DNA from: an uncultured Gammaproteobacteria bacterium
Lineage (GTDB): Bacteria > Patescibacteriota > Patescibacteriia > Magasanikbacterales > GWA2-37-8
Direction: 5' to 3'
DNA: 64,000 nucleotides
Assembly (NCBI GenBank): GCA_964540825.1
Contig: CAZINT010000004.1
Location: 88,835-152,834, forward strand
Shown: positions 403 through 41,847 of the stretch, piece by piece
How the letters are laid out: each line of letters starts with the position of its first letter
Numbering within the stretch: position 1 is the stretch's first letter
Position numbers and translations under genes: made by a program
Notes under the pieces: generated by a model
What the model saw: the letters and a program-made list of their open reading frames with translations, nothing else
Databases searched by the model: none
What the model was told of the DNA's origin: nothing

Positions 403-670
403 AACGACTGATTCTAAATAAAGTAAGTAAGGCGTCTCTTTTTTAGCTGGAGCAGAGCCAAAAGAGACAAGCGAAGACATTTGTAGATGGGCGTATCCTA
501 TCAATTTCCCGGGAGAAAGTCAATACACGACGGCAGTGCTTAAAAAATAGCCTATTTTATGCTTAACCAAGCTTTTTTCTGGTTTTACCGAGCCGACACT
601 TCACCCTCCAGCACAAAAGCAGCCAATCAATTAAATTTTACTTCTCTGCTCAGCCAAAATATGCTATAGT

Positions 671-2419: not shown

Positions 2420-2443
2420 CCAAAAAAAGTTACTTAAAAATTT

Positions 2444-3559: not shown

Positions 3560-3572
3560 TTTTCGCCGTACA

Positions 3573-4673
3573 ATGTTTTTACACAATCCGATCACAGGTG
3601 CTTTTGGCCTCGATATTGGGGACAGGTCAATCAAACTTGTACAACTGAGCAAACATTTGGTACCGCTTCGGCACGGTTCTTTTGCTATTAAAGAAATTCG
3701 CGAACTGAGCTTGCCTCCCGGATATATTGTTGAAGGCGAAATTCAACAGCCCGAAATGGTGCGCAAAAAATTAAGCTTACTTCTTGGTAAAGAAGGCAGT
3801 TTTCCGGACATTGGCAGCCCTTGGGTTGTGGCTGATTTGCCTGAGCCAAAAACATTTCTAAAACTTATTGAGTTGTCTGTTCCGCCAGCTGAAATAACGA
3901 CGGAAGATGTTTTATTCCAAGCCAAAAAGCATTTGCCCTTCGAGGCTGAGGATACGTACTTTGATTGGCAAGTGGTACACCAGGGCGGGAGGGGTGAACG
4001 AACTAAAGTACTCCTTGGCGCGGTCCAAAAGACTATTGCTGACTCATACACCTATTTACTTGAGAGTCTGCGGCTCAAGCCCTTAGCACTTGAAATTCAG
4101 GCTATTGCCCTCTGCCGATCCATGATCACCGGCACCAAAGATTATGATGGTGAAGCCAGGGCAATTATTGATCTCGGCGCTACGCGCTCAAGCCTTATTG
4201 TGTACGACCAAGATACGCCGCAATTTAGCACCAGCCTTACCTTTTCCAGCGAACTTGTCAGAGATACTATCGCCAAAGGTTTAGGAATTGACCCGGAAGC
4301 TGCCGAAAAACTAAAAAATGAAGTCGGGTTTACCTACGATAAAACTAATCCCAAGTACTTAAAAATTGTTTCAGCGCTTTCAGCAAAGCTGATTGATGAA
4401 ATTAGACAAGGACTCGAATTTTATGCCGATCATTTTGAAAACGCTGATCCAGTTACCCACATTACGCTTTGCGGCGGCCTGGCGCGATTAAAAAATTTAG
4501 AAGCATTATTATCTAAAGAATTCAAGATTGCTGCCGCGCTCGGTCACCCTTGGAAAAATATTTTTAATGCTCCGGTTGAACGGTATGATAACGATGACGG
4601 GCTTACTTTTGCAACCGCTATCGGGCTCGGACTGCGCGCTGCGCGCAACCCGCTTGAGGAATATCGCTTATGA
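3573..4673 (+). CDS. pilM: Type IV pilus assembly protein PilM (actin-like ATPase fold)
   Basis: FGLDIGDRSIKLV N-terminal actin-like motif; start moved to internal Met (3573) just after pilC stop; longest ORF begins 3543. Confidence 0.8.
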   Translation: MFLHNPITGAFGLDIGDRSIKLVQLSKHLVPLRHGSFAIKEIRELSLPPGYIVEGEIQQPEMVRKKLSLLLGKEGSFPDIGSPWVVADLPEPKTFLKLIELSVPPAEITTEDVLFQAKKHLPFEAEDTYFDWQVVHQGGRGERTKVLLGAVQKTIADSYTYLLESLRLKPLALEIQAIALCRSMITGTKDYDGEARAIIDLGATRSSLIVYDQDTPQFSTSLTFSSELVRDTIAKGLGIDPEAAEKLKNEVGFTYDKTNPKYLKIVSALSAKLIDEIRQGLEFYADHFENADPVTHITLCGGLARLKNLEALLSKEFKIAAALGHPWKNIFNAPVERYDNDDGLTFATAIGLGLRAARNPLEEYRL

Positions 4674-5254
4674 ATATCCTTCACCTAAATCTGGTATCAG
4701 TCGAGAAAAGAAATAAACTCGAAAAGCTTATTAAATTTTTATTTACCAAAAACATCTTAGAATTAGTAATGCTTTTTTGTATTCTCATCGCTTTAACTCT
4801 GCTCTGGACATCGCTCACACTTACCGGCGAATTTACCGCTGCGACCCCAGGAGCAAACCAGCGCAGTTCAGAATACAGCGTTTACAGTCAAGACGCAGCC
4901 ACTATTAATACAGCTGTTCGCAATATAAATCTGGCCAGTATGGGCGCGGTAAGTACTACACCCAAGCTGATCGCACTCATCGAACAAATTCCTGGCGATA
5001 TTAAGCTAAGCAGCCTCAATTTTGATCGCAAGGCAAATACGCTGACACTCTCGGGAACTGCTCGAACCCGTGACGCACTGCTTAACTTACAGGAAATCCT
5101 TAAAAAAATCTCTTGGATCGAAAAAAGTTCAGCGCCGCTCTCGCAACTATTCACCGCCTCCGATGTCTCCTTCGAAATTAAATCGACCTTACAGAGTTTT
5201 CCGCCACTTCGCCCTGACGCAGCAGCCGCGGCACCACGGGCTTCCACCGAGTAA
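4670..5254 (+). CDS. pilN: PilN-like bitopic membrane protein
   Basis: ATGA overlap with pilM stop, single N-terminal TM helix then periplasmic domain; position in pilMNO order. Confidence 0.55.
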   Translation: MNILHLNLVSVEKRNKLEKLIKFLFTKNILELVMLFCILIALTLLWTSLTLTGEFTAATPGANQRSSEYSVYSQDAATINTAVRNINLASMGAVSTTPKLIALIEQIPGDIKLSSLNFDRKANTLTLSGTARTRDALLNLQEILKKISWIEKSSAPLSQLFTASDVSFEIKSTLQSFPPLRPDAAAAAPRASTE

Positions 5255-10349: not shown

Positions 10350-10423
10350 GGGCCTTTAGCTCAGCTGGCTAGAGCGCTTCCATGGCATGGAAGAGGTCAA
10401 GGGTTCAAGTCCCTTAAGGTCCA
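10350..10423 (+). tRNA. tRNA-Ala (anticodon GGC)
   Basis: Cloverleaf folds by hand: acceptor GGGCCTT/AAGGTCC with G3:U70 alanine identity pair, D stem GCTC/GAGC, anticodon loop aTGGCat, T loop TTCAAGT; CCA not encoded. Confidence 0.85.
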
Positions 10424-10425
10424 CA
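10382..10425 (+). repeat. attL: 44-nt 3' half of tRNA-Ala (direct repeat copy 1)
   Basis: atggcatggaagaggtcaagggttcaagtcccttaaggtccaca identical to 19266-19309. Confidence 0.85.
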
Positions 10426-10554
10426 CTTTCGGCTTACGTTAGCCACTCTGTAGAATAAACTTCAAAAATACATTCAGCCCCCGACCCCTTTCGTCCAAAA
10501 TGCGGTCGTCGGCTCATGATACTGCAAGCAGATTTTTGCAGTATTTTTTGTTCT

Positions 10555-11448
10555 ATGAGTATCGAGTTATTATGCCAAAAATTCTGCGAATACCTTTCCT
10601 ATATTCGCGGCTTCGCACCGACCACCATCATCCGCTACAAGATGGTGCTAAAGCTGTATACCAACTTTGCCAAGATTACTACTATAGAGGAAGTAACCGA
10701 CGATAACACCCGTGATTTCTTCTACTTTGGCCGTACCGACCGTCGGTGGGCCTCAAATTCGTTCATCACCTACCACAAAACCCTGGTTGTTTTCTTCCGG
10801 TGGTGCGTAGAGCACCGATATATGGCTAAAAACCCGATGGACGACATCGAGATACCGAAGCTGCATAAGCGGTTGCCGCCGAAACTGACTAAACAGGACT
10901 CGCTGCGGCTACTGGAGGTGGTCTATAACTACCCGTATCACTATAGGTTTGAGCGCTACCGCAACCATGCGATCTTTGCTACCTTCCTTTTCACTGGTAT
11001 AAGGCGTAAGGAGCTAATAAATCTCAAGTTTACCGATGTTGATCTGCAAAACCTATCTATCTTCATCAACCAAGGCAAGGGTGGTAAGGACCGGGTACTG
11101 CCGATTCCCCTTACCCTGGCCGAAAGCCTCCGGCGCTACCTGGAGGAGCGGAAGCGGTTAAAAAAGACGTGTCCGGAATTCTTCGCATCCCTGTTTAAGG
11201 ACCAGGGGTTCACTACCAGTGGCCTCAAACACCTCGTTGACCGCTTCGTACCTGCCTCAAAAATACAGTTCAATATCCATCGGTTGCGGCACACTTTCGC
11301 CACTCTCATGCTGGAGGGCGGATGCGATATTTTCTCCCTATCTAAGCTTATGGGACACAGTGATATTAAGACCACCACCATTTATCTGGCCGCCAGCCCC
11401 GACCATTTAAGGGGGCAGATTATGAAGCATCCATTAAATAATATTTAA
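10555..11448 (+). CDS. Tyrosine-type site-specific integrase/recombinase (island integrase 1)
   Basis: C-terminal catalytic HRLRHTFAT...GH...Y signature (R-H-R-Y family); ORF opens at 10516, 10555 chosen as more typical N-terminus. Confidence 0.85.
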   Translation: MSIELLCQKFCEYLSYIRGFAPTTIIRYKMVLKLYTNFAKITTIEEVTDDNTRDFFYFGRTDRRWASNSFITYHKTLVVFFRWCVEHRYMAKNPMDDIEIPKLHKRLPPKLTKQDSLRLLEVVYNYPYHYRFERYRNHAIFATFLFTGIRRKELINLKFTDVDLQNLSIFINQGKGGKDRVLPIPLTLAESLRRYLEERKRLKKTCPEFFASLFKDQGFTTSGLKHLVDRFVPASKIQFNIHRLRHTFATLMLEGGCDIFSLSKLMGHSDIKTTTIYLAASPDHLRGQIMKHPLNNI

Positions 11449-11506
11449 CTCTATTTGCCAAATTCACCTCTTTGCCTTAGAATAGTTTAAAGTCTGTTTT
11501 CTTTCT

Positions 11507-12247
11507 ATGCCAAAATCCTACAAGCGCAACTACTTATCAAGCGTCATTTTTAGGCTTGATTTTTTTCAAGATATAGCGATAGGAGAACTTCGTGAATATA
11601 GTAAAAAAATTAAATCTATTTTACCAATTCGCGAAGAAAAGGAGGGCGTTTCCGGAATGATTAATCTTGATTTTACAAGTGGTGATGTGAGACAAGCAAG
11701 TAGAAAAATCTCTACATGGCTTTTTTCTAATAAGAATAAAAATAAAAAACTAGAAGTTGGTTTAAACTACATATACTTAGAATATACAAACCACTCATAT
11801 AAAAACTCTTTGGAACTTCTTTCTGATATTAATGCATTAATTTTTCCTTTTCTTGAAAGCTACGAAATTGGCACAGCTCGCAGAGTTGGCTTGAGGTACA
11901 CAAACGAAATAAATTTAAACGAAAAGAACCCTCTCGATTGGAGTAAATATATTAATAAAAAATTAATTGGTGGTTTAGACTTTGGTTCTAAAAAAATAGC
12001 ACGCTCAATGGGTCAGGTTATCTTAAAAGAAGAAAATGGTGATCTTGTTTTTAACTTTGGTATGTGGAACAAAGACTATCCAAATCAAATCTTAAATAAA
12101 GAATTTATTCTTGATTTTGACTGTTATTCAAATCTAGGAATCTCTAGAGATAAAATTATTGAGAGAGTTAAAGAATACAACAATATAATCGAGGGTTTAT
12201 TTGAAGACAGTATAACAGATAACTTTAGAAAAATACTTAATAAATAG
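11507..12247 (+). CDS. Hypothetical protein (island cargo; N-terminus YxxNYLSSVIFRLDF reminiscent of TIGR04255-type conserved hypotheticals)
   Basis: 246-aa ORF, very AT-rich, Lys/Asn-rich; family assignment is memory-based and weak. Confidence 0.45.
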   Translation: MPKSYKRNYLSSVIFRLDFFQDIAIGELREYSKKIKSILPIREEKEGVSGMINLDFTSGDVRQASRKISTWLFSNKNKNKKLEVGLNYIYLEYTNHSYKNSLELLSDINALIFPFLESYEIGTARRVGLRYTNEINLNEKNPLDWSKYINKKLIGGLDFGSKKIARSMGQVILKEENGDLVFNFGMWNKDYPNQILNKEFILDFDCYSNLGISRDKIIERVKEYNNIIEGLFEDSITDNFRKILNK

Positions 12248-12445
12248 CTGCCATGACAACCATAGACAGTGGAACCCTAAAAGCAAGTTACGCGGATTTT
12301 TCTAAATTCAACTCCAGCAGAAGCCCCGTAACAGGAAGCTTTCCTGGGAAAAATCTAGAGAGCACAAAAGACCACAACGCAGACTACAATGTTTTTAAAG
12401 GTTCTTATTCATACCCTATAAAAAGATCACGCTCAGAAAAAATCG

Positions 12446-13063
12446 TTGTGTATGTTCGCAAGCAAGATTAAGTCGCAATATATTAAGCTTAGAAAAAGCA
12501 GATTCTGCCAAGGTGACATACTCAGAGATATCTACATAAGTTTTGGCTCAGATCTGGGAGAATCAGACAAGAAGCAGCTTGAAAGACATTACTTGCCCTA
12601 CTGCATAATAATGACCCAAGATTGCGACCTTAACTCTGACCATGTAGAAAGAATAAAAAATAGGGGCCACGATAAATATTTGCAAGCGATTTTGCTATGC
12701 CCCGCTTATCAAGAAGATTTGTTTTTTGCTGGTACACATATAGAAAACTGGCAAATGCAACAAATGTCTTCAAAACTAAAAGATAGAATAAAAGAAAATA
12801 ATTATTTTGAACGGTACCACCACATTGAGGGCGATCACACATCTGCTATTCCAAATCTTGTAATTGATTTTAAGCATTTTTTTACCGTTCCTCGTGACTT
12901 AATTTATAAAGACCGAAAAAAAATCTATCTTATAACTCTAAATGAACTTTTTAGAGAGAGGTTGTCTCAAAGATTTGCCAACTACCTATCACGGTTTGGC
13001 TTACCAGATTTAAAAATCAGAACAGACAACCAAGCCCTCTCTGTTCCACAGGACTCCCCCTAG
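12446..13063 (+). CDS. Hypothetical protein (island cargo)
   Basis: 205-aa ORF with conserved-looking QGDIL and IIMTQDCDL motifs; upstream 72-aa ORF 12253-12471 overlaps by 26 nt in another frame (possible frameshifted single gene). Confidence 0.4.
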   Translation: MCMFASKIKSQYIKLRKSRFCQGDILRDIYISFGSDLGESDKKQLERHYLPYCIIMTQDCDLNSDHVERIKNRGHDKYLQAILLCPAYQEDLFFAGTHIENWQMQQMSSKLKDRIKENNYFERYHHIEGDHTSAIPNLVIDFKHFFTVPRDLIYKDRKKIYLITLNELFRERLSQRFANYLSRFGLPDLKIRTDNQALSVPQDSP

Positions 13064-13153
13064 AGAAATCCACATGTAAACAAGGGTTTGCCTAATTTAA
13101 GATTTAAAGGCTGTGCAGTCTTAAAATACCTCATTAAGGATGGGGTGTTTTTA

Positions 13154-13996
13154 TTATTGCACTACTGCAAAACGATAGGGAGGAAAGGGCTCTTCCTTGT
13201 TAGGATTTTTTATAATGGCTAGTGATGGGCCAGTCTTTAATAACAAAGAAAGTACGAGCACCTCGTGAGTAAATCCATTTATCTCATTAATTATTCTGTT
13301 TAAAAAAACACTTACTTCCTCTGGAGTAGAGCCATGAATAATATATTGAGGTGTTACCTGCTGCGTTACATGTTGAAAGGTTATATTCGAAACATTTTTT
13401 AAGCCTCCGTGATGTACAGGGGCATCTCTAAGCAATACTATATAAGAAATATATTCAATTCTATCCTCGATAAATTTTATTAAACTAATCGAGTTTAACT
13501 TGTGTCTTTCAGGAAGGTTGTTTTTTAATTGTTCTATTATACCTCGACCGCTCTCTTCCTTTCCGTTTTCCTTATTCTTTTGTTTATTCCAGCCTCTAAA
13601 TTTCAGATCAAATAAGGGATTAAAGGTCTTTGCTAAGGAATCTAGCGCAGCCTTAATTTGCGTTAAAACCGCATCAATTTCGCCATTTAAATCAGGTGAA
13701 TGCAAAGCCTGGTTCGTATTAGTTGGAGCATTTGAACATTTACTTTTAAAATCATTTATAACTTTTTCTTTCTGTAATAAATATTTTCTTCTATGACTAT
13801 TCGCTTTAAATAAAGCGTCGGTCACTCCTCTTACATGGTCAAAATATAAGTCATGTAATTTTTTATCTGCTAGTATAAAATCTCCTACCTGCAAGCCTAT
13901 TATCATACTTAGGGTGTTATCCAAAATTTCTTTGTCTAAAACATCCTGTGGTTCAAATAAGCTGGTTAATACAAAATTTTCAATTGGGTTTTGCAT
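13154..13996 (-). CDS. Hypothetical protein with R-x4-H-H-G-G (HEPN-like) motif
   Basis: 280-aa ORF; LLRDAPVHHGGL near C-terminal third; otherwise no recognisable domain. Confidence 0.45.
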   Translation of the reverse strand: MQNPIENFVLTSLFEPQDVLDKEILDNTLSMIIGLQVGDFILADKKLHDLYFDHVRGVTDALFKANSHRRKYLLQKEKVINDFKSKCSNAPTNTNQALHSPDLNGEIDAVLTQIKAALDSLAKTFNPLFDLKFRGWNKQKNKENGKEESGRGIIEQLKNNLPERHKLNSISLIKFIEDRIEYISYIVLLRDAPVHHGGLKNVSNITFQHVTQQVTPQYIIHGSTPEEVSVFLNRIINEINGFTHEVLVLSLLLKTGPSLAIIKNPNKEEPFPPYRFAVVQ

Positions 13997-14229
13997 AAAA
14001 TTTTAATTGTAGCTGTTGTGTAAATTAACTATTGCTTTCTTCTAGAGCATACAGTATTCTATATTTGCTGCCTATATTAATCAAAATAACCCTTTCACGG
14101 GCGACTGTTTCTATAGCCAATTGTGGCTAGAGATGGACAGTCGCACCTCCACAATTGGAGCCCGTAAGGGTTTTGATTAATGTGGGCAGCAGGTCGGCTG
14201 TCCTTTTTTATTTCAGCCCTTAAATACCT

Positions 14230-15183
14230 ATGTCTATTACAAAACTTAGTACCTGGCGAACTACATTAGGAATTGGTGTTGTTTTATCCCTACTTACTAT
14301 TGTAGGATGCGCGACCACGCCTACGTCCTCCATTGGTACGGATGGAACCTCGACCGCTATAGAGAATGATACCTTGTTGGCTGCAACCACAGCTAAAGTG
14401 GAATCTATAGATACCTCTAAGGATCAAAAACTGTCGGCCACAACGCCCACACAAACAAAAACTACGGATCAGCGAAAACCGACAACAGATACACCTACAA
14501 AACCGACCACTCCTCAGAACGATCTCTACACAGTTACCAAAGTCGTAGATGGCGACACTATCGACGTAACCAAAGATGGAAAAACCCTTCGTGTCCGGTA
14601 TATCGGCATGGATACCCCCGAAACCGTACATCCAAGCAAAGGCGTGCAATGCTTCGGTAAAGACGCTTCCAGCAAGAATAAGGAACTAATACTAGGTAAG
14701 CAGGTACGCCTTGAAAAAGATGTCTCTGAAACTGATCGTTACGGTCGGTTCCTCCGGTATGTCTATCTAGGTGACACTTTCATTAACTTAGAGCTAGTAA
14801 AGCAGGGTTACGCTACTGCCGCCACCTTCCCACCTGACGTTAAACACTCACAGGACTTCGTAGCAGCTGAGCGTGAAGCCAGAGAAGCCAAACGTGGCCT
14901 GTGGGCCTCCTGTAAGTCTACAGAGGCTACCAGCAGCCCTAAAACGACCACCACAAACCAACCAACCGCCTCAAATCCAACTCCGGCACCCACACCTACA
15001 TCTCCCACACCTAATGGCTGCACTATTAAAGGCAATATTAGTACTAGAAAAGAGAAAATTTATCACCTACCAGGGTGTGGCTCCTATACCAAGACTTCGA
15101 TCGACGAGAGTGCCGGAGAGCGTTGGTTCTGTACGGAGCAACAAGCGGTACAGGCGGGGTGGAGAAAAGCGGAAAACTGCTAG
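14230..15183 (+). CDS. Secreted lipoprotein nuclease, staphylococcal-nuclease (SNase/thermonuclease) family with YncB-type C-terminal domain
   Basis: Lipobox LLTIVGC, Thr/Pro-rich linker, SNase motifs [26 protein letters not shown]; C-terminal [23 protein letters not shown]...[21 protein letters not shown] as in Bacillus YncB. Confidence 0.8.
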
Positions 15184-15264
15184 AACACCATAAAATTATA
15201 GAGAAAAACAGGGCAAACACCCTGCTTTTTTCTTATTTAAAACATCTTAAAAGAATCATACTAT

Positions 15265-16557
15265 ATGATATACTCCTATCATATGAATGATCCAATTCGT
15301 CGTAAATTAACCGGGGAACTATCTATAAGCGCTGACTATAAAAATAACGAATCTACAAAATCTGTTGTTTTTCGTCGTTTAGTTGAAAAAAAATTTGTAG
15401 AAAGTATTCCCAGGGAAAAACTAGAGGAAATGATTCGGAACGATCTTAAAAAAGTTTCTATCACACCTGTAAATGGCATATTTAACGCTCACCAGTTATT
15501 TCACTATACTAATTCTGATTTTTTAAAAGATTTTGACTTTGGAAACACCTTGATTCAAGCTCATATACCATATTGCCTTCATTTTCCCAATCATTACGAA
15601 ATAATTGTAGATATTCCTGAAAAAAAACTAGAAGCCCTTGTTATCTTTGAAAAAATCTGGACGAGCCGCGCCCAAACAGAAGACAAAAAGTCAGATACCG
15701 TTGATTTCTTTGCGGAAGACTGCGTAACTTATTTTAAGGATAGTATTATCCAGACCCCTCAAATACCTTTATCCGCTCAAGAGGGGTGGGAGTCTCTTTT
15801 TACAGGAACGAACATAGAAAAAATGAGTGACCAGAACGGCATTTTTCGTTTTACAAGAGTTCTTATCCAGTTTGATACCAATTTTCCGCAAGATATGAAC
15901 CAGGGCGACTACAAATCTTTGTTGCCACGAGTCGAGGAAATAGCACTTACCGCTATTAACCGCGTAATTGATGTATATCGCGAGGTCACAAATGAATTTT
16001 TCATAAGAAGACTTGGAAGTTTAAATATAAATTTAATTTATTTTATTCCTAAGAATGAAGGTTTTTACCTACTTCCTACCAATATTGAAACAGCAAAGAT
16101 TAACCGATCAGGCAAAGAAATTGAAGAAATATCAGCTAAATTAGAGGCGGGACACAAACCAGAAGTTTACAAGTTACTTTTATTTAACGCATATAGTTCT
16201 TTTGAAACAAAGGATTACACATTGGCTATAGTAGAATCATTCCAGTCTCTAGAAATTTTTTTGGAAAATTATTTAGTAAATCTTTTCAAAGTAAAAAATA
16301 TTCATAAAAAAGAATATCGTAAAATCCTCAAAAAAAACTGGAAGACAAAAGATAGATTAACCGAAGTGCTCAAAAATCTTATTGGGGTGTCTCTCGATAA
16401 ACAACTAAATATTTGGCCTAAATGGTGTGCTCGCTACGATCAAACTCGTAACAGAGTAATACACGGAGGCAAAGAACCATCACCGTTAGAAACCAAGGAA
16501 ACACTGGAAATTAACCAGAAAGTTATTGAATGGCTAAACTCAATAACGACTAAATAA
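15265..16557 (+). CDS. Hypothetical 430-aa protein with C-terminal HEPN-like R-N-x3-H motif (candidate abortive-infection/toxin RNase)
   Basis: C-terminal WCARYDQTRNRVIHGGKEP fits the common RNxxxH HEPN signature; large uncharacterised N-terminal region. Confidence 0.45.
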   Translation: MIYSYHMNDPIRRKLTGELSISADYKNNESTKSVVFRRLVEKKFVESIPREKLEEMIRNDLKKVSITPVNGIFNAHQLFHYTNSDFLKDFDFGNTLIQAHIPYCLHFPNHYEIIVDIPEKKLEALVIFEKIWTSRAQTEDKKSDTVDFFAEDCVTYFKDSIIQTPQIPLSAQEGWESLFTGTNIEKMSDQNGIFRFTRVLIQFDTNFPQDMNQGDYKSLLPRVEEIALTAINRVIDVYREVTNEFFIRRLGSLNINLIYFIPKNEGFYLLPTNIETAKINRSGKEIEEISAKLEAGHKPEVYKLLLFNAYSSFETKDYTLAIVESFQSLEIFLENYLVNLFKVKNIHKKEYRKILKKNWKTKDRLTEVLKNLIGVSLDKQLNIWPKWCARYDQTRNRVIHGGKEPSPLETKETLEINQKVIEWLNSITTK

Positions 16558-16571
16558 CATCTTCAAATCAT

Positions 16572-17366
16572 ATGGTTGTAAATAGTCGTAAATTAAAAAA
16601 CGCTATCTCAAATAATATAAAAAATTACTTTGCCAAGGATAAAACGGTTTTTGATAACCTCAATTCCCTATTCAACCTTTTGTTTGACCACCCGGTTTAT
16701 ATTGAACGAGCTAAAAGGGTGCGGGGTATTTTTCTACTTCCAAAAGACACTGGCCTGTTGTCAGGTGAAGAAGCGTTGGTGTGGGAAAACGATAATGGAG
16801 ATAAATTAAAAAAATTGCGTGACGCCGTCACAAAACTCCTAACTGGTTTTGCTATTCCTGAGGCTTTTCGGGACCGTGTTTTTTATTTTACTTATGACTA
16901 TATTATATCTAAAAATAGCATCCTCTCTTTGTTAGTCGAAAATTTTGATAGCCCAAACCAGAAAGATGAGGGATACAAACGTGCCCCCAAACTACTTAGC
17001 TTCCGCACCGTTCACACCTTACCTGACCGTGAATTGAATAAATATTTGTTGGACACCAACGCCTTATACCTTCAAATAGGCCCTGGTATGAACTTAGCAA
17101 CACTGCAAAAAGTCTACACGGAAGTAATTATGAAAAATAAAGAACAGCTTTTACCGCTTGAGGCACCGAGTCCAGAGGAAAAAGCGCGACTGATCTGGCG
17201 CATGCGAATGGAAAAATTTAGACCTAAAAAAATTATTGAAGTTTTGAAGATAAAGTATATTCATGAGCCAATAAAAATCGACCACCACTTCGTCAAAACA
17301 AATACTTACCGCTACACCAAAGCACTTCAGACACTCAAGATGTTTGATCCAAAAAAGTATTTATAA
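16572..17366 (+). CDS. Hypothetical protein (island cargo)
   Basis: 264-aa ORF 14 nt after previous gene, followed by clean terminator. Confidence 0.45.
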   Translation: MVVNSRKLKNAISNNIKNYFAKDKTVFDNLNSLFNLLFDHPVYIERAKRVRGIFLLPKDTGLLSGEEALVWENDNGDKLKKLRDAVTKLLTGFAIPEAFRDRVFYFTYDYIISKNSILSLLVENFDSPNQKDEGYKRAPKLLSFRTVHTLPDRELNKYLLDTNALYLQIGPGMNLATLQKVYTEVIMKNKEQLLPLEAPSPEEKARLIWRMRMEKFRPKKIIEVLKIKYIHEPIKIDHHFVKTNTYRYTKALQTLKMFDPKKYL

Positions 17367-17367
17367 A

Positions 17368-17396
17368 AGAGCTTGCTAAAAAGCTCTTTTTCTTTT
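17368..17396 (+). terminator. Rho-independent terminator
   Basis: AAGAGCTT-gctaaa-AAGCTCTT followed by TTTCTTTT. Confidence 0.65.
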
Positions 17397-17500
17397 AACA
17401 AGTGTGCCAATATTTTTATCGGCTGATTTTTGTTACCCTAGGGTCAGTGTTTGCACGATAGCGACCACAATCTCATGTCCATAATGTCCTAGTTAAAAAT

Positions 17501-17965
17501 ATGCAGCCAAACGAAAAAGAGGACTTTGATTTAAAGTCGCTTGAAATTCAAGAGCGCAGACAAAAGGTCGAACAGTTTCATATTCAAGGCTTTTCTATCC
17601 TGCGGATGGCCCAAGAGTTAAAAGTAAACCCCCGAACCATTGTTCGCGACATTCAGGCGAACCGACAAGAACGGCTCTCTATGCTTGATGGGTACAGTGG
17701 AAGCATAGACTGGCTCCGTAACAGACTTGGTGATCACGTCAGTCTTATGGATAACGCCCGCTACCGCTTACTGCAAATTGCCGAAAACTCTACAGATGAC
17801 ATGGTAAAAGCTAAAGCCTTAAAACTCGCCACAGAGGTCGACAAAGACACTGTCGATACAGTTCTCAAACTTATGTGGTCGTTTAAAGATTTTATGTATG
17901 CTGGACCCTACCTTGCTAGACCTGTCGGCCTTAAAAAAGAGGACGGACTTCAGGAAAAAGCGTAA
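17501..17965 (+). CDS. Small HTH-containing protein (possible excisionase/regulator of the island)
   Basis: FSILRMAQELKVNPRTIVRDI helix-turn-helix-like segment; immediately upstream of second integrase. Confidence 0.45.
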   Translation: MQPNEKEDFDLKSLEIQERRQKVEQFHIQGFSILRMAQELKVNPRTIVRDIQANRQERLSMLDGYSGSIDWLRNRLGDHVSLMDNARYRLLQIAENSTDDMVKAKALKLATEVDKDTVDTVLKLMWSFKDFMYAGPYLARPVGLKKEDGLQEKA

Positions 17966-18132
17966 ATTTTCCCTTTCCTTGAAGCCGCCTTATAAAAACA
18001 TTTCTGAATGTCCGCCAGAGAAAAAGACTGATTACCTATTCTATCTGTACTTACGTGGCATGCAAACCGGCAGCGGACCGGATGTTAGAAGGTTTCTTGC
18101 AGCCACTAATCAATTGCCAGAAAAAAAATCTT

Positions 18133-19083
18133 ATGACTCACAGCCTACAAGAACTGCATAAACAATTTATAAGGGAAAAAGAACTGGTTGATGAGTTTCG
18201 GCCTGCAACTTCAACAAATCATCGGGTAACTCTTGATTTACTATTAAAATTTAATCCTGCTATAACCCTAGCAGATCTAACCTATACTACTATGCTTGAT
18301 TTCTTTCAATTTCTAAAAAAACGCACAAGATTAGTTAGCGGAAGTGCTTCCAAACAAGGAGTTAAAACATCGACCTTAGCCACCCATTACGGAAAGCTGA
18401 ACACCTTTCTTAAGTGGCTTATCGTACACAACCACTTAGCGGAGAATCCTTTAAAGGACATCCCCTACCCCGAACCTGATTATAGTGATCGTCGGGCTTT
18501 AGACGAAAGTGAGTTGGCAAAAATTTTCGGCGCACTAGAGCACGGCATTGCCTACACCGATCTTTTTCGAAAAAAGCGTGACGCTGCTATATTTGCGGTA
18601 CTGCTTGGATGCGGCTTACGAAAAAATGAGCTTGTTAATCTCAGACTTATTGATATCAATCTCGAAAAACGTGAGCTTCGTGTGCGAAAGGAAACTTCTA
18701 AATCGAAAAAAGATCGTCATGTAGGTTTGAATTCAGACGTCACCATGCGTCTTGAAGATTACCTAAAAGCCCGCAGTGAAAAAGGCTACCAAAATGAATA
18801 CTTGTTTGTTTCCACAACTCATGACAATAGGTTTACAGCTAACGGTTTGAAGCACCTGATTCAAAGAGTCATCAGCGCTTCTGGGGTAAAATTTCACCCT
18901 CACCGTTTCCGCCACACCTTTATGTGGAACGCTGTACGTGCCGGAGTGCATATTGTTAAAATTCAACAAATGATGGGACACAAAGATCTACGCATGCTTC
19001 TTACCTATGCTCGTGGTATGCCTGCTAACAGTATGCTTGGTGATATGGAGCGAATACATCAGCAGCACTTCTATAGAAAATAA
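18133..19083 (+). CDS. Tyrosine-type site-specific integrase/recombinase (island integrase 2)
   Basis: HPHRFRHTFMWNAV...GH...LLTYA catalytic signature; ORF opens at 18055, 18133 Met gives typical length. Confidence 0.85.
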   Translation: MTHSLQELHKQFIREKELVDEFRPATSTNHRVTLDLLLKFNPAITLADLTYTTMLDFFQFLKKRTRLVSGSASKQGVKTSTLATHYGKLNTFLKWLIVHNHLAENPLKDIPYPEPDYSDRRALDESELAKIFGALEHGIAYTDLFRKKRDAAIFAVLLGCGLRKNELVNLRLIDINLEKRELRVRKETSKSKKDRHVGLNSDVTMRLEDYLKARSEKGYQNEYLFVSTTHDNRFTANGLKHLIQRVISASGVKFHPHRFRHTFMWNAVRAGVHIVKIQQMMGHKDLRMLLTYARGMPANSMLGDMERIHQQHFYRK

Positions 19084-19265
19084 TTGCTTTTCTGCCATGA
19101 ATTTGATACTTTACAGATACTTTATTCAGCAAAAACTGCACGCATTTCACCGAGTCAGTTTGGGCAGAGAAGCGGTCGCGGGCACTGATGTAAATTCGAG
19201 TAAAATTCTACACTATTTTATCTCAACCAAGCCATGAAACCCATGTATTGGGACCGGTTGAATTG

Positions 19266-19309
19266 ATGGCATGGAAGAGGTCAAGGGTTCAAGTCCCTTA
19301 AGGTCCACA
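19266..19309 (+). repeat. attR: 44-nt copy of tRNA-Ala 3' half (direct repeat copy 2)
   Basis: Exact match to 10382-10425, followed by the tRNA's original terminator. Confidence 0.85.
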
Positions 19310-20045: not shown

Positions 20046-23000
20046 TTATGGCGTGCTGGTTGGCGTCTCACTTTCCTCCGCCACGGACGGCGTTGAGCTT
20101 GCATCACTGGGCGGGGCTCCATCGAGCGCTGCGGTTGAAGAAGCCACCTCGACAACTGGTGTTTCCGCGGGAGAGGCGTCTAGCGTAGTCGTTGAAACGG
20201 TTTCAGGAACAGGATTACTTTTATTTTGATCTCGCCGTTTAGCGACCACAATCCAGTCAAACGTAGCAGTGCCAGCACTACCGTCAATTTCCCTTACCAC
20301 AAAACCTTGAGCTGATTTTTCAGCAACATAGACGCCCTTTGAGCCTGCTGAGGTAAGCGTCACCGTTACTTTAAGCGGCTGAGCCTGGTCAATAATATCC
20401 TGCGTTCCTTGATCGAAGACAATGCGTGCTTCGCCCGCGACAAGTGCGGACGAACTCGAGAAGACAAATTCTGATGTGGGCGACTGAACAGCAAACATAT
20501 CTTGCGTCCCGACCGATGTAGTAAGATGTGTTATAAAATGCCCCTCAGCATCAATAGACCATTTTTTATCTTTCGAAGTAATTGCCGCAACATTCAAAAG
20601 CACATGGCCTTGCAGGTTTAAATCACCGCCTTGATACATTAATTGTCCTTTTGGTGCTTCAACTTTCAAGTCATTACCACCATTTGCAAGATCAATGCCT
20701 TGAGCTGTTGCGAGCTGTTCTAGGTTAGTTTGGAGCGAGGTAATATTTTTGTTTTGTGAGTAGGCCCAACCGGTTCTAATGAGCGCGGGGATTTTTCCTT
20801 CGGTTCCACTGAAGGGGTCAAGCGCAATACCAATCACCCCAACCATCTTTTGGCTGTTATCAAGTGTGGGATCGTATTTCATCGCGTAGCCGGGTTTCGA
20901 CGATGCCACAAGAAGATCTCCGCGATTAATCAAACCATTTTCATTAACTACTTTAACCGGCACACGGCCAACCATAGCAAGCACAGCGGTAGTATCGGTT
21001 TTGCCCCTGCCTACCACGATGGTTGGGTTGGTTGAAATGACACCAGCAACTGCCACATCGTATGCCGCACCGCTGCGGCGATAGGTGTCCGGACTATTTG
21101 GGTCAACAATCATAACATCCCCAGCTTCAGCAATATCGTCAGCAGCTATATCTACACGTTCAGCTAAATCGCCGGGATTAGTCGAGGATCCAAAGGTTGC
21201 GCTCGCACCATAATAATTTCCCACGGTATTAACGTCACCATTAGCTGCTACGGAGAAAACCGGCGTGTCGTGCGCTCGGAGTGAAAACACAATTCGATCA
21301 GGCGTACTGGTTGGCGCAAAATTTGCGGCATTTAAAATAAACGCCCTAGCATTAGCAAAATCGCCCACATTTGAAGTTAAAAGACTACTTGTGGCAAACG
21401 AAATGGTATTGAGCGATGTCGAGAGGAGCGACAAGTTACCGTTGAGTGCAAAGTTATACGGCGTTGTTGAACTGCCGACAATAATATTCTTATTTTCCGT
21501 ATCAATGGTAAGTGTTTGGTTGAGGTTGCTCGTTGCCGCAGCGGACGAATCAATATTTACAAAGGTCGTAATCGTACCGCTGCCATTACCGGTAAAGTTT
21601 TCCATCGCAATACCAATAGTTGGCTGACCTGCCACAGCCTTAACCGCAACACCTGAAATTGACGAAGCGGAAAGTTTGTCCCCAACAGTAATTGGGCCGT
21701 TAAGGCTAGAAACAACTAAAGGCACGCGACCAGCCAAGGCCAGCGAGACCATTTTGGTTCCACTTGCAAAAACCGCGTCCTCCGGCCCCCACTCTGTCAG
21801 CAGCAGACCAGGTTTAGTCGAAACGATACCAATAGCGTGCGGGTGATCTTTAATATCAGCTTTTACTACTCGATTAGGATTATTTTTATCAAGCGCAACA
21901 ACATCACCTGGTTTTAAGGTTGGATCATCTGTCAGATATGATTCAGCTAAATCAAACCCGGAAAGATATGCTTGTTTGGCATAAATTTCTTGAGAATAGA
22001 TCTTATAAAAATACTGCCGTGAGTTACCGAGTGAAGTGCCTGAAAGAGCCGTTGTCGTCCTGCACCCGCCATTATCGAAATCATTGTCTGAGCACCCCTG
22101 CCACATCATCAGGTCTCCGGTGTCTGATTTGTAGTAAAAAGCAGTGAGGACACCGGCACCACTACGAACTAAAGACAGACCCTTGGTGTAATTAAAGGGG
22201 TCTGGCGACCCAAAAGGAAGTTGTGAATTTGTTCCTGAATAACAATTTACGCTGCCGCAGGAATAAATAAAGGGGTCGGTATCTGAATCAGTTATACGCT
22301 TTAAAAATGCAACTGCAGGTATTCCTCTACTGTCTATAGCAATACTTGGCCACGCCCCCTGGCTGCTCGTATGGTTTCCAACGGAAAGTGAGGTCTGTGA
22401 GATATTTGAACAAGCTGCGCTTTGACACGGACCAAAATACACGTTTGCATCTCCGTCATCATAGTAAGCTAAAAAAGGAACGCTTAACCCGCCAGGGCTT
22501 CCGGATTGGAAACCTCCATCAGCTTTGGCCATGCCAAGAGTAATATAACCACCTTCGTTTCCAACGTTATTGTCAATGGTATTGCCAAAAGAAAATGACG
22601 CACAGCGGATTGCTTGACAGTGAATCATCTTGATGGCGTTATTATTATCCTTAAACGCTATAAGTGGTGTGCCGTCTGAGGCGATAACCATTTTGATATA
22701 AGGATCAGTAGCGAGACTGGTTGACAGCGTAGAAGAAGCATCAAAGGCCGAACAATCCTCAGCAGTACAGTGTTTAAAAAGCAGATTATTTTCTGTTGAA
22801 TTTTGGTATGCTACTACCGGCATTCTATCCTGACCAACCGCTACTGCACTATATTTTCCATTATCCGAAAAAGTATCAAGCGTTCGGATACTAGCGGTAC
22901 TACAATCAACACTATAGCATTTCGCTAATTTAAGTTTTTGGTTAGTCGCATCATAATAAGTAAGAATCGGATACCCATCCGCACTGATGACCATAGAGGG

Positions 23001-26000
23001 ATTCTTACCGACATCCCCGGTCGAATCCAGGACTACTTCCGTATGAGAAGAACAGTTTTGAACACTACAGTGCATGACTATAAGATCAGCATTAGTAATG
23101 TCGTAATACGCAACAACCATAAGGTTATCACTGCCAACAACGGCAACTGGATAAGCGCCCACATCGTTTGTGGACACTAAAGTGCTTGAAGTACTTGTTG
23201 CGTTGCCTGCAATAGCGGTTGACGTAACGACACCGCTCAAAGGTACGATATTGCCCGCAATTTGGAGCGTACCGGAGCTAAAGATATTCCCGCTGCTATC
23301 AATATAAAGCCGACCAAGAGCATAAGCAGTGCTTGTATTAACCACAACCGCGGAAGTACGAGTAAATGTAGTTGTTGCCGAAAAAGTATTAAAACCAGTA
23401 AAATTTTGATCAGCTGTCAAAGAGGCTACATTAGCACCTCCGCCACAACCACTGCACGAGCCTACTGTAAGCGTTCCGATATAACCACTCGTTACATTTA
23501 AATTTTGAATGGTTGAACTTGCTGCTGTTGTGGTTGTAAATGTAGACGTTGCACTTACCCCGAGTGTTCCGGCAACATCTAATAAATTTACTGGCGCGCC
23601 AGTACCAATCCCCACATTGCCGCCAAAAATACCCAGCGTGTTTGCTTGGGATATAAAACCTGAAGCACCTCCGAGCCCAAAGCCAATTGAGTTAGTTCCG
23701 CCGCCGGTAATGGTCATATTTGTCCCAAGGGCAATTGAGTTGTTGCCTAGAGCGTGCGCTCCATTACCAAGCGCAATGGACGTGTCACCCCCAGCTTCAC
23801 TGCCAAAACCAGCTGCAAAAGCATTTTGATTCGTTACCGAGTTGCTACCGCCAAATGCAGCGCCATTATTTCCCGAAACGCTATTGCTTGCCCCCACCGC
23901 AATACCACGATCACTAACAATATTATTAAAACCAGCTGCAAAAGCATCACCCCCACTTGCAGTATTCCCCGTACCAAACACAGCCGAAGTATTTCCACTC
24001 GCTTTATTATTAAGGCCAAAAGCAACTGAATAATTTCCGATATTAGCATCGTCCCACTGTGTATTATTAACCGAACCAGCCCGAAACGCCGCTTTGTTTG
24101 GCACCCACATCAAACGAACACCTGCTCCATCATACGGTGTGACACCCGCCTCTCCAAGTGTGCCGATCGCCAAAATCGCCCCGTCTTTTATGGTAAATTT
24201 TGCCACCGGTGTTGAAGTGCCCACGCCAAGGCCACCGGAAAAGGAAGAGGTGGCGCTAAAAATATTTGAACCGGTAAATGTCTGATCAGCCGAGAGTGAT
24301 GCGCCTCCACCAGCCGAACAGCCTGTACACGTTCCAGTGACAACTAAATTGGTAATATTAGCCCGGGTGATCGAACTGCTGGCCATTGTAGTAGTGGTAA
24401 AAGTTGATGTACCCGTTACTGCAAGTGTACCGCCCACTGTCAAAAGTGAACTTGGAGTCAGTGTGCCGATACCAACATTACCGCCCATAATCGCTAACGT
24501 ATTGTTTTGGGAAAGCGTGCGAGAATTTGTATCAAGACCAATACCAACCGAATTATTTCCACTCACCGAAATTCTTGAGCCAAGCGCAATTGCCGAGGTT
24601 CCACCGGCGCTATTATTGGCACCGATCGCCGTAGAACCGGTGCCACCTGCAGAGGTATTGCCTGTACCGATCGCTGCTGCCGAGCTTGCGCCGCTCACCG
24701 TGTTGCTCAAACCAGCTGCAAAACCACCGCCGCCGCCATTAATAGTATTGCTCGTTCCAAAAGCAGCTGAGTAGGTTACTGTGACGTTATTACTGCCACC
24801 AAAAGCAACTGAGCCAGTTTGAGTAACCGTATTGCCGGTTCCACCTGCAAATGCCCTATCACCTGACACCTGATTATTTTCGCCAAAAGCAGCTGAATAA
24901 ACTCCGATATTTGCCGCATCCCACTGCGCCCCATTTATATAGCCCGCTCTAAAGGCGGCTTTGTTCGGAATCCACATAAGCCGCGTACCTGCACCATCAT
25001 ACGGAGTTGTACCTGCCCCGCCAAACGTTCCGACGGCCAAAACCGCTCCTTCACTCACCGTTAGCTTGGCTACTGGTGTTGACGTTCCCACACCAAGCCC
25101 AGCGCTAAACGAAGACGTCGCGCTAAAAACATTGGCACCAGTAAAGGTTTGGCTTGCCGATAACGACGCACCACTCGCTGCACAGCCAGTACACGTACCA
25201 TTTATAACTAAATTGGTAATATTGGCATTCGTAATGGTTGAACTGGCAATAGTCGTAGTTGTAAACGTGGTCGTAGCACTGAATACATTTAGGCCTGTAA
25301 AAGTCTGATTACCTGCTAAATACCCTAGCACGCCTGTGCCCCCAATGCTTGCTAAATTAATACCGCTTACCGTTCCATTAACTACCAAGTTGGAAACATT
25401 TGCATTGGCAATACTTGAACTAGCTATAGTAGTGGTGGCAAACGTCGATGTCGCACTAAAGGTATTGAGGCCAGTAAATGCTTGGGTATTGCCGAGATAT
25501 GCCAAAACACCCGTCCCAAAAATACTTCCGAGAGAAATGCCACTTACCGTACCGTTTACCGTTAAATTAGTGATGTTTGCAGTGCCGATTGTCGAACTGG
25601 CAACTGTTGTTGTGCTAAGTGTTGTAGTAGCGTTAAAAGTGTTTAAACCATTAAATATTCCTGAACCATTAACAACTAAACTATCCGCGGTCAGAGCATT
25701 AATACCGGTAATATTGTTACCTCCAAGCATTAAATTGCCGGCGAGCGTTCCGCCGGCGAGCGGTAAATAGTTACTTGCCGTGATAGAATCAGCCACCATA
25801 GCATCAGTAATACTGTTCGAGGGTAAAGAAACCGACCCATTAACCGTTAAGGCAACAATATTCGCACTATTTATAGTACTGCTAGCAATGGTAGAGGTTG
25901 TAAAAGTAGTCGTAGCATTAAAAACATTGGCCCCAGCAAAAGTTTGTGAATTAGCAAGGTAGGCCAAAACACCGGTACCACCAACACTCCCTAAATTTAG

Positions 26001-41831: not shown

Positions 41832-41847
41832 GGTCGGTGGTCTCCTT

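Follow-up and report, generated by a model that had tools for sequence, protein, structure and literature searches.

A HEPN protein and a candidate HEPN-like protein among the cargo of an integrative element at a tRNA-Ala gene

An integrative element and its cargo

The window analysed here, a stretch of 64,000 nucleotides, contains an 8.9-kb integrative element inserted at the 3' end of a tRNA-Ala(GGC) gene, and the region 13154-17366 is cargo of this element. The island is real, as 44-nt repeats at tRNA-Ala occur together with two tyrosine recombinases and low GC. The perfect 44-nt direct repeat is present in two identical copies on the forward strand, spaced 8,884 bp repeat to repeat: attL (10382..10425), which is the 3' part of tRNA-Ala(GGC) (10350-10424), and attR (19266..19309). 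Island GC is 34-39% vs ~45% in the flanks. Each end carries a forward-strand tyrosine recombinase with a Pfam Phage_integrase match. Recombinase 1, at the attL end (10516..11448; E = 4.9e-29), is XerC/D-like, with NCBIfam Xer-type matches that all fall below the cut-off, and recombinase 2 lies at the attR end (18055..19083; E = 1.4e-32). The two share 28% identity. Furthermore, an independent Logan contig of 8,900 bp (L027) corresponds to window positions 10396-19295. The first-pass annotation had assumed a mobile island, and the repeats, recombinases and GC shift bear this out; both motif-bearing genes discussed below lie inside.

All three open reading frames that the annotation had singled out are present: those of a 280-aa protein on the reverse strand (13154..13996), a 430-aa protein on the forward strand (15265..16557) and, also forward, a 264-aa product (16572..17366). 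The 264-aa ORF follows the 430-aa gene after a gap of 14 bp, and the two are probably co-transcribed here. Terminator-like hairpins (15209-15224 and 17365-17390) flank these two ORFs, with a promoter-like site immediately before them.

Between the 280-aa and 430-aa genes is a forward-strand gene for an SNase-type protein (14230..15183; Pfam SNase, E = 2.2e-27). It has a C-terminal "sunset" domain (NCBIfam, E = 3.8e-10) and matches the PADLOC SNc+LTD candidate model (E = 5.1e-41). By eye, its N-terminal hydrophobic segment, with a Cys at its end, looks lipoprotein-like. Upstream of recombinase 2, a 154-aa helix-turn-helix protein (17501..17965, forward), which may regulate the element or act in its excision, matches Pfam HTH_11 and HTH_38 below threshold and Sigma70_ECF at 21.7 bits, barely above the cut-off of 21.1. 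The forward-strand cargo of 11507..13063 comprises a TIGR04255-family protein (11507-12247; NCBIfam TIGR04255, E = 9.9e-29), together with a 72-aa ORF and a ~205-aa ORF (12446-13063), for which family-profile searches (Pfam, PADLOC, NCBIfam) and a homologue search gave zero matches.

Motifs, conservation and predicted folds

The 430-aa and 280-aa proteins each contain exactly one R-x4-6-H motif. The R-x4-H form that the first-pass annotation reported is present in both, but in a single sequence it is not significant because it turns up in 15 of the 53 mechanically called window ORFs that are 150 aa or longer. The longer form R-x4-H-x-G occurs in 3/53 such ORFs, two of which encode these proteins. 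It is conservation that carries the weight: the motif exceeds chance because it is conserved in both families.

In the 430-aa protein the motif reads RNRVIHGG at residues 395-402 (R395-N-R-V-I-H400-G-G; codons 16447..16470, forward strand; context ...YDQTRNRVIHGG...). The RNxxxH signature is thus present as described, but the protein does not end with it; the motif lies ~30 residues before the C-terminus. Translation of this protein probably begins at M7 (15283), the start shared by 23/25 homologues. Our search found 64 homologues, and an alignment of 25 of them (A2; 33-59% identity) has R395, H400 and G402 invariant (25/25) and N396 conserved in at least 90%. The AF2 model places the motif at the end of helix 384-399, running into the loop before helix 407-428. 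This matches the canonical HEPN motif position, the end of helix 3 (PMC3710099).

Modelling and sequence profiles indicate that the 430-aa protein is a genuine HEPN protein, with a predicted C-terminal four-helix domain (~300-430) following an N-terminal domain (~1-295). C-terminal pLDDT is ~80-90. The high-probability Foldseek matches of the model in the PDB are HEPN proteins only: 2q00 (0.98), 1o3u (0.97) and 2hsb (0.72), in addition to Csx1-Crn2. The E-values of these matches are weak (0.14-2; TM ~0.65 per target), so the HEPN call rests on probability, TM and agreement with the sequence profiles. Pfam HEPN_Apea matches 16/25 homologues, mostly weakly, and Pfam HEPN matches 12/25; the window protein itself falls below every Pfam HEPN threshold, while homologue P0060 exceeds the HEPN_Apea gathering score (26.5 vs 24.4 bits). 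The HEPN part of the PADLOC Csx1/Csm6 model is matched by the window protein (E = 1.8e-5) and by 15/25 homologues, and two family members weakly match the RnlA toxin HEPN-type domain. With a modelled bundle, the motif at the end of its helix 3 and R and H conserved throughout, the HEPN assignment of the annotation held for this protein. So did its remark that the N-terminal region has no recognisable domain: ~290 residues match nothing. This domain is conserved in the family and moderately modelled, with pLDDT 30-60 over 133-194.

The 280-aa protein belongs to an unannotated family that forms at least 395 clusters when grouped at 50% identity, and is a candidate divergent HEPN-like protein. 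Its motif, LLRDAPVHHGG, spans RDAPVHHGG at residues 190-198 (R190-D-A-P-V-H195-H-G197; codons 13406..13429, reverse strand). Across the superfamily alignment (A4; 94 sequences, mean column identity 18%), R190 is conserved in 92/94 and H195 in 91/94, both among only six near-invariant columns. D191, which follows the arginine, reaches 85%, K115 98%, L118 100% and D119 98%; the near-invariant residues are K115, D119, G150, R190 and H195. K115-A-A-L-D119 (codons 13640..13654, reverse strand), the second near-invariant block, lies in helix 101-123 and may supply the acidic residue that a HEPN site has in helix 2. The AF2 model is all-alpha and confident (pLDDT 89, pTM 0.88). In it, R190 forms the C-terminal end of helix 170-191 and H195 sits in the next loop, at pLDDT below 50; an insert separates helices 2 and 3, and a beta insert precedes helix 4. 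A polar residue after the HEPN arginine and a helix-2 acidic residue are both expected (PMC3710099). As modelled, the near-invariant residues would be placed as in a HEPN site, with the acidic residue in helix 2 and R-D-x3-H at the end of helix 3, before a flexible loop.

We think it possible, but doubt, that the 280-aa protein is something other than a HEPN RNase and that its K/D/G/R/H residues form another hydrolase site, or a nucleic-acid or ligand site, in a novel helical fold. The R-x4-H match could be convergent or coincidental, given how often the motif arises by chance. The protein has no Pfam, NCBIfam or PADLOC match and no significant PDB match, and despite the pLDDT of 89, Foldseek against the PDB placed no HEPN structure among the best 50 of 177 matches (down to E = 10). 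Structurally, the 280-aa protein comes closest to an unnamed phage protein of 275 aa (BFVD A0A514TZW7; probability 0.92, TM 0.44). Comparison with the 430-aa HEPN family by hhalign aligned the motif only (P = 0.15-0.69, not significant). However, four features fit the published HEPN definition: where the motif lies, the polar residue that follows R, the acid in helix 2 and the insert between helices 2 and 3. HEPN_Apea is the only Pfam family to match more than two of the 94 members (7/94; best E = 0.0074, all sub-threshold), the ApeA HEPN domain is itself split by insertions (H3/H4), and HEPN families are notoriously divergent (PMC3710099). The HEPN-like claim of the annotation thus stands as regards motif conservation and topological position, but finds no PDB HEPN match by Foldseek. 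HEPN status is plausible yet unproven, since neither solved HEPN structures nor HEPN profiles give a significant match. The 280-aa protein is most likely, judging from model and alignment, a very divergent HEPN-like RNase acting alone.

Gene neighbourhoods of the two families

Neighbouring genes were compared at 16 distinct loci of the 430-aa family, including the window, and at 8 loci of the 280-aa family. Both families recur in prophage, integrative-element or defence-type neighbourhoods. The only recurrent neighbour of the 430-aa family is a large serine recombinase (8/16 loci), and the genes downstream of its members vary in size, strand and sequence. Among its contexts are a prophage end with terminase and recombinase, and a conjugative region that has T4SS genes and TA modules. 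Members of the 280-aa family occur beside an EcoRI-type methylase, AIPR and a terminase (L023), and beside MazG and a Schlafen-type helicase (L009). Neither family was found in viral contig and phage collections, and neither gave a whole-protein match to any validated defence model.

That the 430-aa family serves the mobile element and not host defence, for example by acting as a toxin for addiction or stabilisation, by excluding competing elements or by processing element or host RNA during transfer, seems to us unlikely. Its members nearly always lie by recombinases or in prophage- or conjugative-type regions, as the serine recombinases, the T4SS genes at one locus and the two tyrosine recombinases around the window gene illustrate, and they match no validated defence system beyond the generic HEPN part. 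Such surroundings are nevertheless compatible with abortive infection, mobile elements being the usual carriers of defence genes, and the absence of a conserved partner antitoxin argues against classical addiction.

An element-specific toxin-antitoxin or toxin-immunity pair of the 430-aa HEPN protein and the 264-aa ORF is, in our judgement, improbable. The two share a strand and a 14-bp gap, the hairpins bracket just these two ORFs downstream of the promoter-like site, and HEPN toxins are often paired with antitoxins, such as HepT-MntA and RnlA-RnlB (PMC3710099). An antitoxin-dependent toxin would, however, be expected to keep its antitoxin, and tblastn found no homologue of the 264-aa ORF at any of the 15 other 430-family loci. 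Profile and homologue searches with this ORF also gave no MNT, nucleotidyltransferase or other family match. Its suggested role as partner or antitoxin was therefore not borne out.

The 280-family gene has a similarly inconstant association. Among the 16 loci of the 430-aa family it lies within 10 kb in the window only, and none of the other 15 has a 280-like or 264-like gene nearby. A 430-like gene is found near 2/8 280-family loci, counting L024, where a distant 322-aa relative (E = 1.5e-10) lies 750 bp upstream of the 280-family gene, so the two families may be loosely linked. We regard it as very improbable that the two proteins are halves of one defence or toxin system, a HEPN heterodimer or sensor-effector pair as first proposed: they have the conserved R-x4-H-x-G motif in common, their genes are 1.3 kb apart on one island and the 2/8 exceeds random placement of two rare families, but 15/16 and 6/8 loci lack the other gene, the window genes are divergent with the nuclease gene and its own terminator-like site between them, those of L024 are on the same strand around a deaminase gene and so differ in order and orientation, and profile-profile comparison was not significant, with no homology detectable beyond the motif.

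Proposed mode of action and comparison with known systems

On balance, we lean towards reading the 430-aa and 280-aa genes as unrelated, independent single-gene effectors on a mobile element, most likely abortive-infection RNases. Their proximity, and that of the 264-aa ORF, would reflect the tendency of such genes to gather in mobile and defence islands. Its predicted fold and conserved motif suggest that the 430-aa protein acts alone as a HEPN ribonuclease, with its N-terminal domain fused to the HEPN domain. If it works like ApeA and the other Abi-type HEPN proteins, it would homodimerise via the HEPN domain and so form a composite metal-independent RNase site. We infer a sensor role for the N-terminal domain, which might keep the protein switched off in the absence of a signal from infection or stress. 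Once active, the protein could cleave tRNA or mRNA and so arrest either the cell or a competitor, be it a virus or another element.

Csx1/Csm6 provides the best defence-library match of the 430-aa family (model 204-339 of 357, best E 1.5e-7), and Csx1-Crn2 and Csx1 are also among the Foldseek matches. The CARF half is unmatched, however, and the N-terminal domain as modelled is not Rossmann-like. No cas family is matched by the island proteins or by Pfam-annotated neighbours in those related loci that were examined.

Among solved structures, minimal HEPN/HepT proteins (1o3u, 2q00, 2hsb; HepT 5YEP/7AE8) come closest in fold to the C-terminal domain, with Foldseek probabilities of 0.72-0.98, TM of 0.63-0.67 per target and R-x4-H likewise at the end of helix 3. 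These are single domains of ~120-140 aa paired with an MNT nucleotidyltransferase antitoxin, whereas the 430-aa protein has a 290-aa N-terminal fusion, and neither the island nor the related loci of its family contain an MNT gene.

RnlA and LsoA have dedicated antitoxins. RnlA/LsoA, AbiV, AbiD/F Abi_2 and AbiU2 are Abi-type HEPN RNases with variable N-terminal regions (PMC3710099). Mobile-element or defence-island location and an abortive-infection logic liken the window genes to this group; neither the 430-aa nor the 280-aa window protein matches the AbiV, Abi_2, AbiU2 or RnlA/LsoA profiles.

ApeA was reportedly described as a single-gene HEPN anti-phage system by Gao et al. in 2020. The window protein differs from it in several ways. 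At 430 aa it is shorter than E. coli ApeA, which has at least ~580 aa and a HEPN region at 335-583. The model predicts a mixed, beta-rich N-terminal part where ApeA is predominantly helical, and a compact HEPN domain of ~130 aa that lacks the large insertions of ApeA. In PADLOC the window protein comes nearer to the Csx1/Csm6 HEPN model, and neither an ApeA-named PADLOC model nor the Pfam ApeA N-terminal domain is among the 430-family or window matches. Even so, HEPN_Apea (PF18739) is the most frequent Pfam match of the 430-family HEPN domain (16/25, one above threshold). ApeA offers a precedent for HEPN defence by one gene: its non-HEPN part senses a ligand, whose pocket the N-terminal domain helps to form, the HEPN domains dimerise, and the protein cleaves tRNA in the anticodon loop (bioRxiv 10.64898/2026.01.26.701840). 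The 430-aa family resembles it in having no conserved partner gene and a mobile or sporadic distribution.

A tRNA-targeting integrative element and its cargo

The element at window positions 10382-19309 is a tRNA-targeting integrative element. A perfect 44-nt direct repeat (10382-10425 and 19266-19309) bounds an interval of 8,884 bp, and its first copy is the 3' part of tRNA-Ala(GGC) (10350-10424). A tyrosine-recombinase gene lies at each end, at 10516-11448 (Pfam Phage_integrase, E = 5e-29) and 18055-19083 (E = 1e-32); their products are 28% identical to one another. GC content is 34-39% in the island, against ~45% in its flanks. The mobile island assumed by the first-pass annotation is thus borne out by repeats that duplicate a tRNA 3' end, integrases and atypical composition. 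Furthermore, window 10396-19295 recurs at 100% identity as an independent contig of 8,900 bp (L027), assembled from a public run and broken exactly on the 44-nt repeat.

The cargo is heterogeneous. Adjoining the first recombinase is a one-strand block (11507-13063) with no assigned function as a block, comprising a TIGR04255-family protein, a 72-aa ORF and a ~205-aa ORF that contains the sequence MTQDCDLNSDH. A literature search found no paper on TIGR04255. A staphylococcal-nuclease homologue (14230-15183) has a hydrophobic N-terminal segment with a Cys at its end (lipoprotein-like, as judged by eye), a low-complexity Thr/Pro linker and a C-terminal "sunset" domain, and it matches the PADLOC candidate model SNc+LTD (E = 5e-41). 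The island also carries a 154-aa HTH protein. The three ORFs named in the first-pass annotation were all recovered at the coordinates given there: a 280-aa protein (13154-13996, minus strand), a 430-aa protein (15265-16557, plus strand) and a 264-aa ORF (16572-17366, plus strand).

Several other features of the window were recorded. A 21-nt inverted repeat (14066-14191; arms 90% complementary, 84 nt apart), which could be an operator or terminator structure, lies between the divergently oriented 280-aa and nuclease genes. Just outside attR, the second copy of the 44-nt repeat, begins a 2,260-aa repeat-rich ORF (20046-26828, minus strand) that is Thr/Ser/Gly/Ala-rich and surface-protein-like. 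Over ~7 kb (41000-48000), GC content switches in patches between 55-60% and 39-41%. tRNA genes for Ala-CGC and Arg-CCT lie at 45056-45358, and no rRNA or other Rfam family was found within 41000-48000.

HEPN-type features of the 430-aa and 280-aa proteins

The R-x4-H motif by itself is weak evidence; conservation makes it meaningful. Among mechanically called window ORFs of at least 150 aa, 15 of 53 contain R-x4-H and three of 53 contain R-x4-H-x-G. The 430-aa and 280-aa proteins have one R-x4-6-H motif each: ...WCARYDQTRNRVIHGGKEPS... (R395-N-R-V-I-H400-G-G) in the former and ...IVLLRDAPVHHGGLKN... (R190-D-A-P-V-H195-H-G-G) in the latter. The 430-aa motif is indeed present; it lies ~30 residues from the C-terminus, not at the very end of the protein as had been stated. 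According to Anantharaman et al. 2013 (PMC3710099), HEPN domains are defined by a conserved R-x4-6-H whose R is followed by a polar residue (N, D or H); they also have a conserved acidic residue in helix 2, and helices 2 and 3 are separated by an insert.

The 430-aa protein belongs to a conserved family. We detected at least 64 homologues at E 1e-63 or better, mostly metagenomic. The named sources are candidate-phyla-radiation lineages, among them Woesebacteria, Curtissbacteria, Kaiserbacteria, Staskawiczbacteria, Saccharibacteria and Paceibacterota, and two homologues carry the JGI label "HEPN domain-containing protein". In an alignment of 25 sequences, whose identity to the window protein is 33-59%, the invariant residues include R395, H400 and G402 and, in an upstream helix, S325, Q327, E330 and E334. 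The polar residue after R395 is N396, which is at least 90% conserved.

Matches to curated HEPN profiles cover part of the family. The PADLOC Csx1/Csm6 model is matched by 15 of the 25 family members, and by the window protein over the model's HEPN half (E = 1.8e-5). Pfam HEPN_Apea matches 16 of 25 members, one of which (P0060) scores above the gathering threshold, and Pfam HEPN matches 12 of 25. The window protein itself has no Pfam HEPN hit.

The predicted structure of the 430-aa protein is HEPN-like. The AF2 model has a pLDDT of 70 overall and 80-90 across residues 290-430, where four helices (318-343, 348-373, 384-399 and 407-428) were modelled. The third helix has R395 in its final turn, and the loop after it opens with H400; HEPN domains are described with the motif in this position (PMC3710099). 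The high-probability Foldseek matches in the PDB were all HEPN structures (2q00, 0.98; 1o3u, 0.97; 2hsb, 0.72), followed by Csx1-Crn2; TM scores of these HEPN matches were 0.63-0.67 per target, with weak E-values (0.14-2). We therefore regard the 430-aa protein as established to be HEPN at the level of fold and motif, in keeping with the earlier HEPN reading.

The N-terminal part of the 430 family is strongly conserved over ~290 residues. Conserved blocks in the 25-sequence alignment are LPYCLH, KIWT-RA, SD--DFFAE, EGW, FTG-N-E---D-NG-FR(Y/F)T, N--ID-YR, RRLG and MNRS. The earlier description of a large N-terminal region with no recognisable domain holds for this protein: searches of Pfam, PDB sequence profiles and Foldseek returned no family or structure match. 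This part of the AF2 model is well modelled in part only. The start codon is probably the ATG at 15283 (seventh codon), judging from the alignment, in which 23 of 25 homologues start there. A promoter-like TTAAAA-16-TATACT lies at 15247-15274, and a start at 15283 would give a nearly leaderless mRNA.

The 280 family is large and lacks annotation in the databases searched (Pfam, NCBIfam, PADLOC, PHROGs and PDB). An initial search returned 7 relatives and a profile-based one 19; when 1.84 billion representatives were searched exhaustively with a profile, 395 matched at E up to 1e-3. The family comprises at least 395 clusters at 50% identity. In a 94-sequence alignment of this superfamily, with a mean column identity of 18%, six columns besides the start Met are at least 90% conserved: K115, L118, D119, G150, R190 (92/94) and H195 (91/94). 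The polar residue D191 follows R190 in 85% of the sequences. In one close homologue (P0072), the R-H spacing is one residue shorter in the alignment.

The 280-aa AF2 model is confident (pLDDT 89, pTM 0.88). It contains four long helices (45-88, 101-123, 170-191 and 228-254), small beta elements (138-149 and 205-227) and a low-confidence loop (194-197). The second long helix holds K115 and D119, and the insert between helices two and three (124-169) holds G150. R190-D191 end the third helix, and H195 is in the flexible loop after it. Compared as helix and residue positions, the model reproduces all the qualitative HEPN features listed in PMC3710099.

Searches for known relatives of the 280 family gave little. 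Nothing exceeded threshold in Pfam, NCBIfam, PADLOC or PDB-sequence profiles, scans of PADLOC, NCBIfam and PHROGs yielded no consistent family, and all ten distant members inspected are "hypothetical protein" in their source annotation. The sole recurrent weak profile signal is HEPN_Apea, which matches none of 19 close and seven of 94 broad members, all sub-threshold (best E = 0.0074). When the two families were compared by hhalign, the motif region alone was aligned, without significance (P = 0.15-0.69), and an HMM of the 430-family HEPN domain matched the motif of 280-superfamily members at noise level only. The HEPN reading of the 280-aa protein stands as to its conserved motif and HEPN-like topology, but not as to a match with a solved HEPN fold: Foldseek against the PDB found nothing significant, and HEPN was absent from the best 50. 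We lean modestly towards a divergent HEPN-like RNase, and give an appreciable, clearly smaller chance to the protein being something else with a conserved R/H site.

Some 280-family members have N-terminal extensions (P0069, P0071 and P0074). Some extensions are Cys-rich (CxxC) and zinc-ribbon-like by eye, with Pfam matches that are sub-threshold only, and two members of the wider family carry a SEC-C motif. This points to variable accessory modules.

Genomic context of the two families

The 430 and 280 families do not form a fixed two-gene system. We compared 16 distinct 430-family loci and eight 280-family loci, with up to 10 kb on each side, searching all locus ORFs by tblastn and with HMMs of both families, and clustering the neighbours. 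Apart from the window, no 430-family locus contains a 280-family gene. The genes immediately upstream and downstream of the 430-family gene differ in every locus, and the sole recurrent neighbour is a large serine recombinase (8/16 loci). One 430-family locus (L004) is a prophage end with a terminase and methylases; another (L006) is a T4SS region with Fic, MazE and PIN modules after it.

The settings of 280-family genes vary just as much. In L009 (7734-11196), GIY-YIG and 280-family genes are followed by genes for a MazG-like protein and a Schlafen-group-3-type helicase. In L023 (6571-16436), the 280-family gene has phage-type genes (terminase large subunit, ParB-N6/N4 methylase) on one side and, on the other, genes for an EcoRI-type adenine methylase and an AIPR abortive-infection-family protein; a SEC-C-motif protein and an uncharacterised 264-aa ORF lie in between. 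Two further loci (L028 and L030) have housekeeping flanks. A small GIY-YIG protein (77-97 aa) is encoded directly upstream of the 280-family gene in L009 and in L030 (3678-5055). A link between the staphylococcal nuclease and the 280 family was also considered and rejected: a homologue lies ~3.7 kb from the 280-family gene of L023, and this pairing, found in two of eight loci with differing order and distance, appears coincidental.

A 430-like gene occurs near a 280-family gene in the window and in one other of the eight loci (L024). In this metagenomic locus (215-4792), the 430-like gene lies 750 bp upstream of the 280-family gene and encodes a distantly related protein shortened to 322 aa (HMM E = 1.5e-10), which keeps LPVCLH, FRFTR, N--L--YRY and RHRVVHRG. 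A cytidine/dCMP-deaminase-family gene lies between the two, and all three are on one strand. Two uncharacterised genes precede them, one with a weak proteasome-subunit-like match. For two families this rare, being found together twice exceeds what random placement would produce; our reading is that both consist of defence-island or mobile-cargo genes. There is no conserved order, orientation or obligate co-occurrence; therefore, a fixed system of the 430-aa and 280-aa genes, as the first-pass annotation had proposed, is ruled out.

The suggestion that the 264-aa ORF is a partner or antitoxin is likewise not supported. No homologue of this ORF, nor of the HTH, TIGR04255 or 205-aa products, occurs in the other 430-family loci. 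Terminator-like hairpins (15209-15224 and 17365-17390) and the promoter-like site at 15247-15274, all consensus matches only, suggest that the 430-aa and 264-aa ORFs are one local transcription unit in the window. No relative of the 430-, 280- or 264-aa protein turned up when viral contigs were scanned and GenBank phages searched by tblastn.

Proposed mechanism and relation to known systems

Stand-alone HEPN RNases are well known as abortive-infection and toxin effectors. We show that a tRNA-integrated element carries a gene in which a HEPN fold with the R-N-x3-H motif, invariant at its R and H, is fused to a conserved N-terminal domain, and that the family is stand-alone in distribution and tied to mobile elements. 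By analogy with ApeA and other Abi-type HEPN proteins, the 430-aa protein would dimerise via its HEPN domain to create a composite RNase site, and the N-terminal domain would gate activity in response to an infection-derived cue. Once activated, the protein may cleave tRNA or mRNA, causing growth arrest that would block a phage or competing element. As far as conservation and topology indicate, the 280-aa protein might act likewise and alone, with K115, D119, R190 and H195 as its site.

A bolder combined reading is improbable in our view. In it, the 280 family would be a large, unannotated HEPN-like RNase clade in which a beta insert separates helices 3 and 4; the 430-family N-terminal domain would be a new ligand or infection sensor, the counterpart of the ApeA pocket in small (CPR/Patescibacteria-type) genomes; and the proximity of the two genes in the window and L024 would reflect a functional cooperation of two RNases rather than island clustering.

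The 430-aa and 280-aa genes are of a known kind: stand-alone HEPN-type effector genes on a mobile island, in new variants. The 430-aa protein is best filed as a new family-level variant inside the HEPN superfamily; the 280 family, if confirmed, would be a further divergent HEPN-like clade. What is new is an N-terminal domain with no recognisable relative whose conservation extends over at least 64 proteins, most of them from candidate-phyla-radiation-type genomes, together with a sizeable database-unannotated family whose best-conserved residues resemble a HEPN active site. The two genes also give concrete cases of candidate defence genes carried by a mobile element in ultra-small bacteria, a group with immune repertoires that are, to our knowledge, poorly described. 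The case also advises caution, as a short common motif and physical proximity did not here equal a common system.

Several known systems were considered for the 430-aa protein. Membership of ApeA itself was rejected: at E up to 1, neither the window protein nor the 25 homologues matched an ApeA-named PADLOC model, the Pfam ApeA N-terminal domain was not among the family matches listed, and the protein is smaller than ApeA as described by cryo-EM, with a different predicted N-terminal secondary structure (bioRxiv 10.64898/2026.01.26.701840). Csx1/Csm6 was rejected since the CARF half of the model is unmatched and annotated neighbours include no cas family; the match to the HEPN half only and an N-terminal model that is not Rossmann-like argue against any CARF-type sensor. 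A HEPN-MNT toxin-antitoxin module was dismissed for want of an MNT gene, as no island protein matched a nucleotidyltransferase family and none was a recurrent 430-family neighbour.

ApeA nevertheless offers a close comparison. Its HEPN domain, like the 280-aa model, has an insertion between helices 3 and 4 (bioRxiv 10.64898/2026.01.26.701840). The 430-aa protein resembles ApeA in architecture and probably in logic, and its N-terminal domain could be an infection sensor, as the non-HEPN part of ApeA proved to be.
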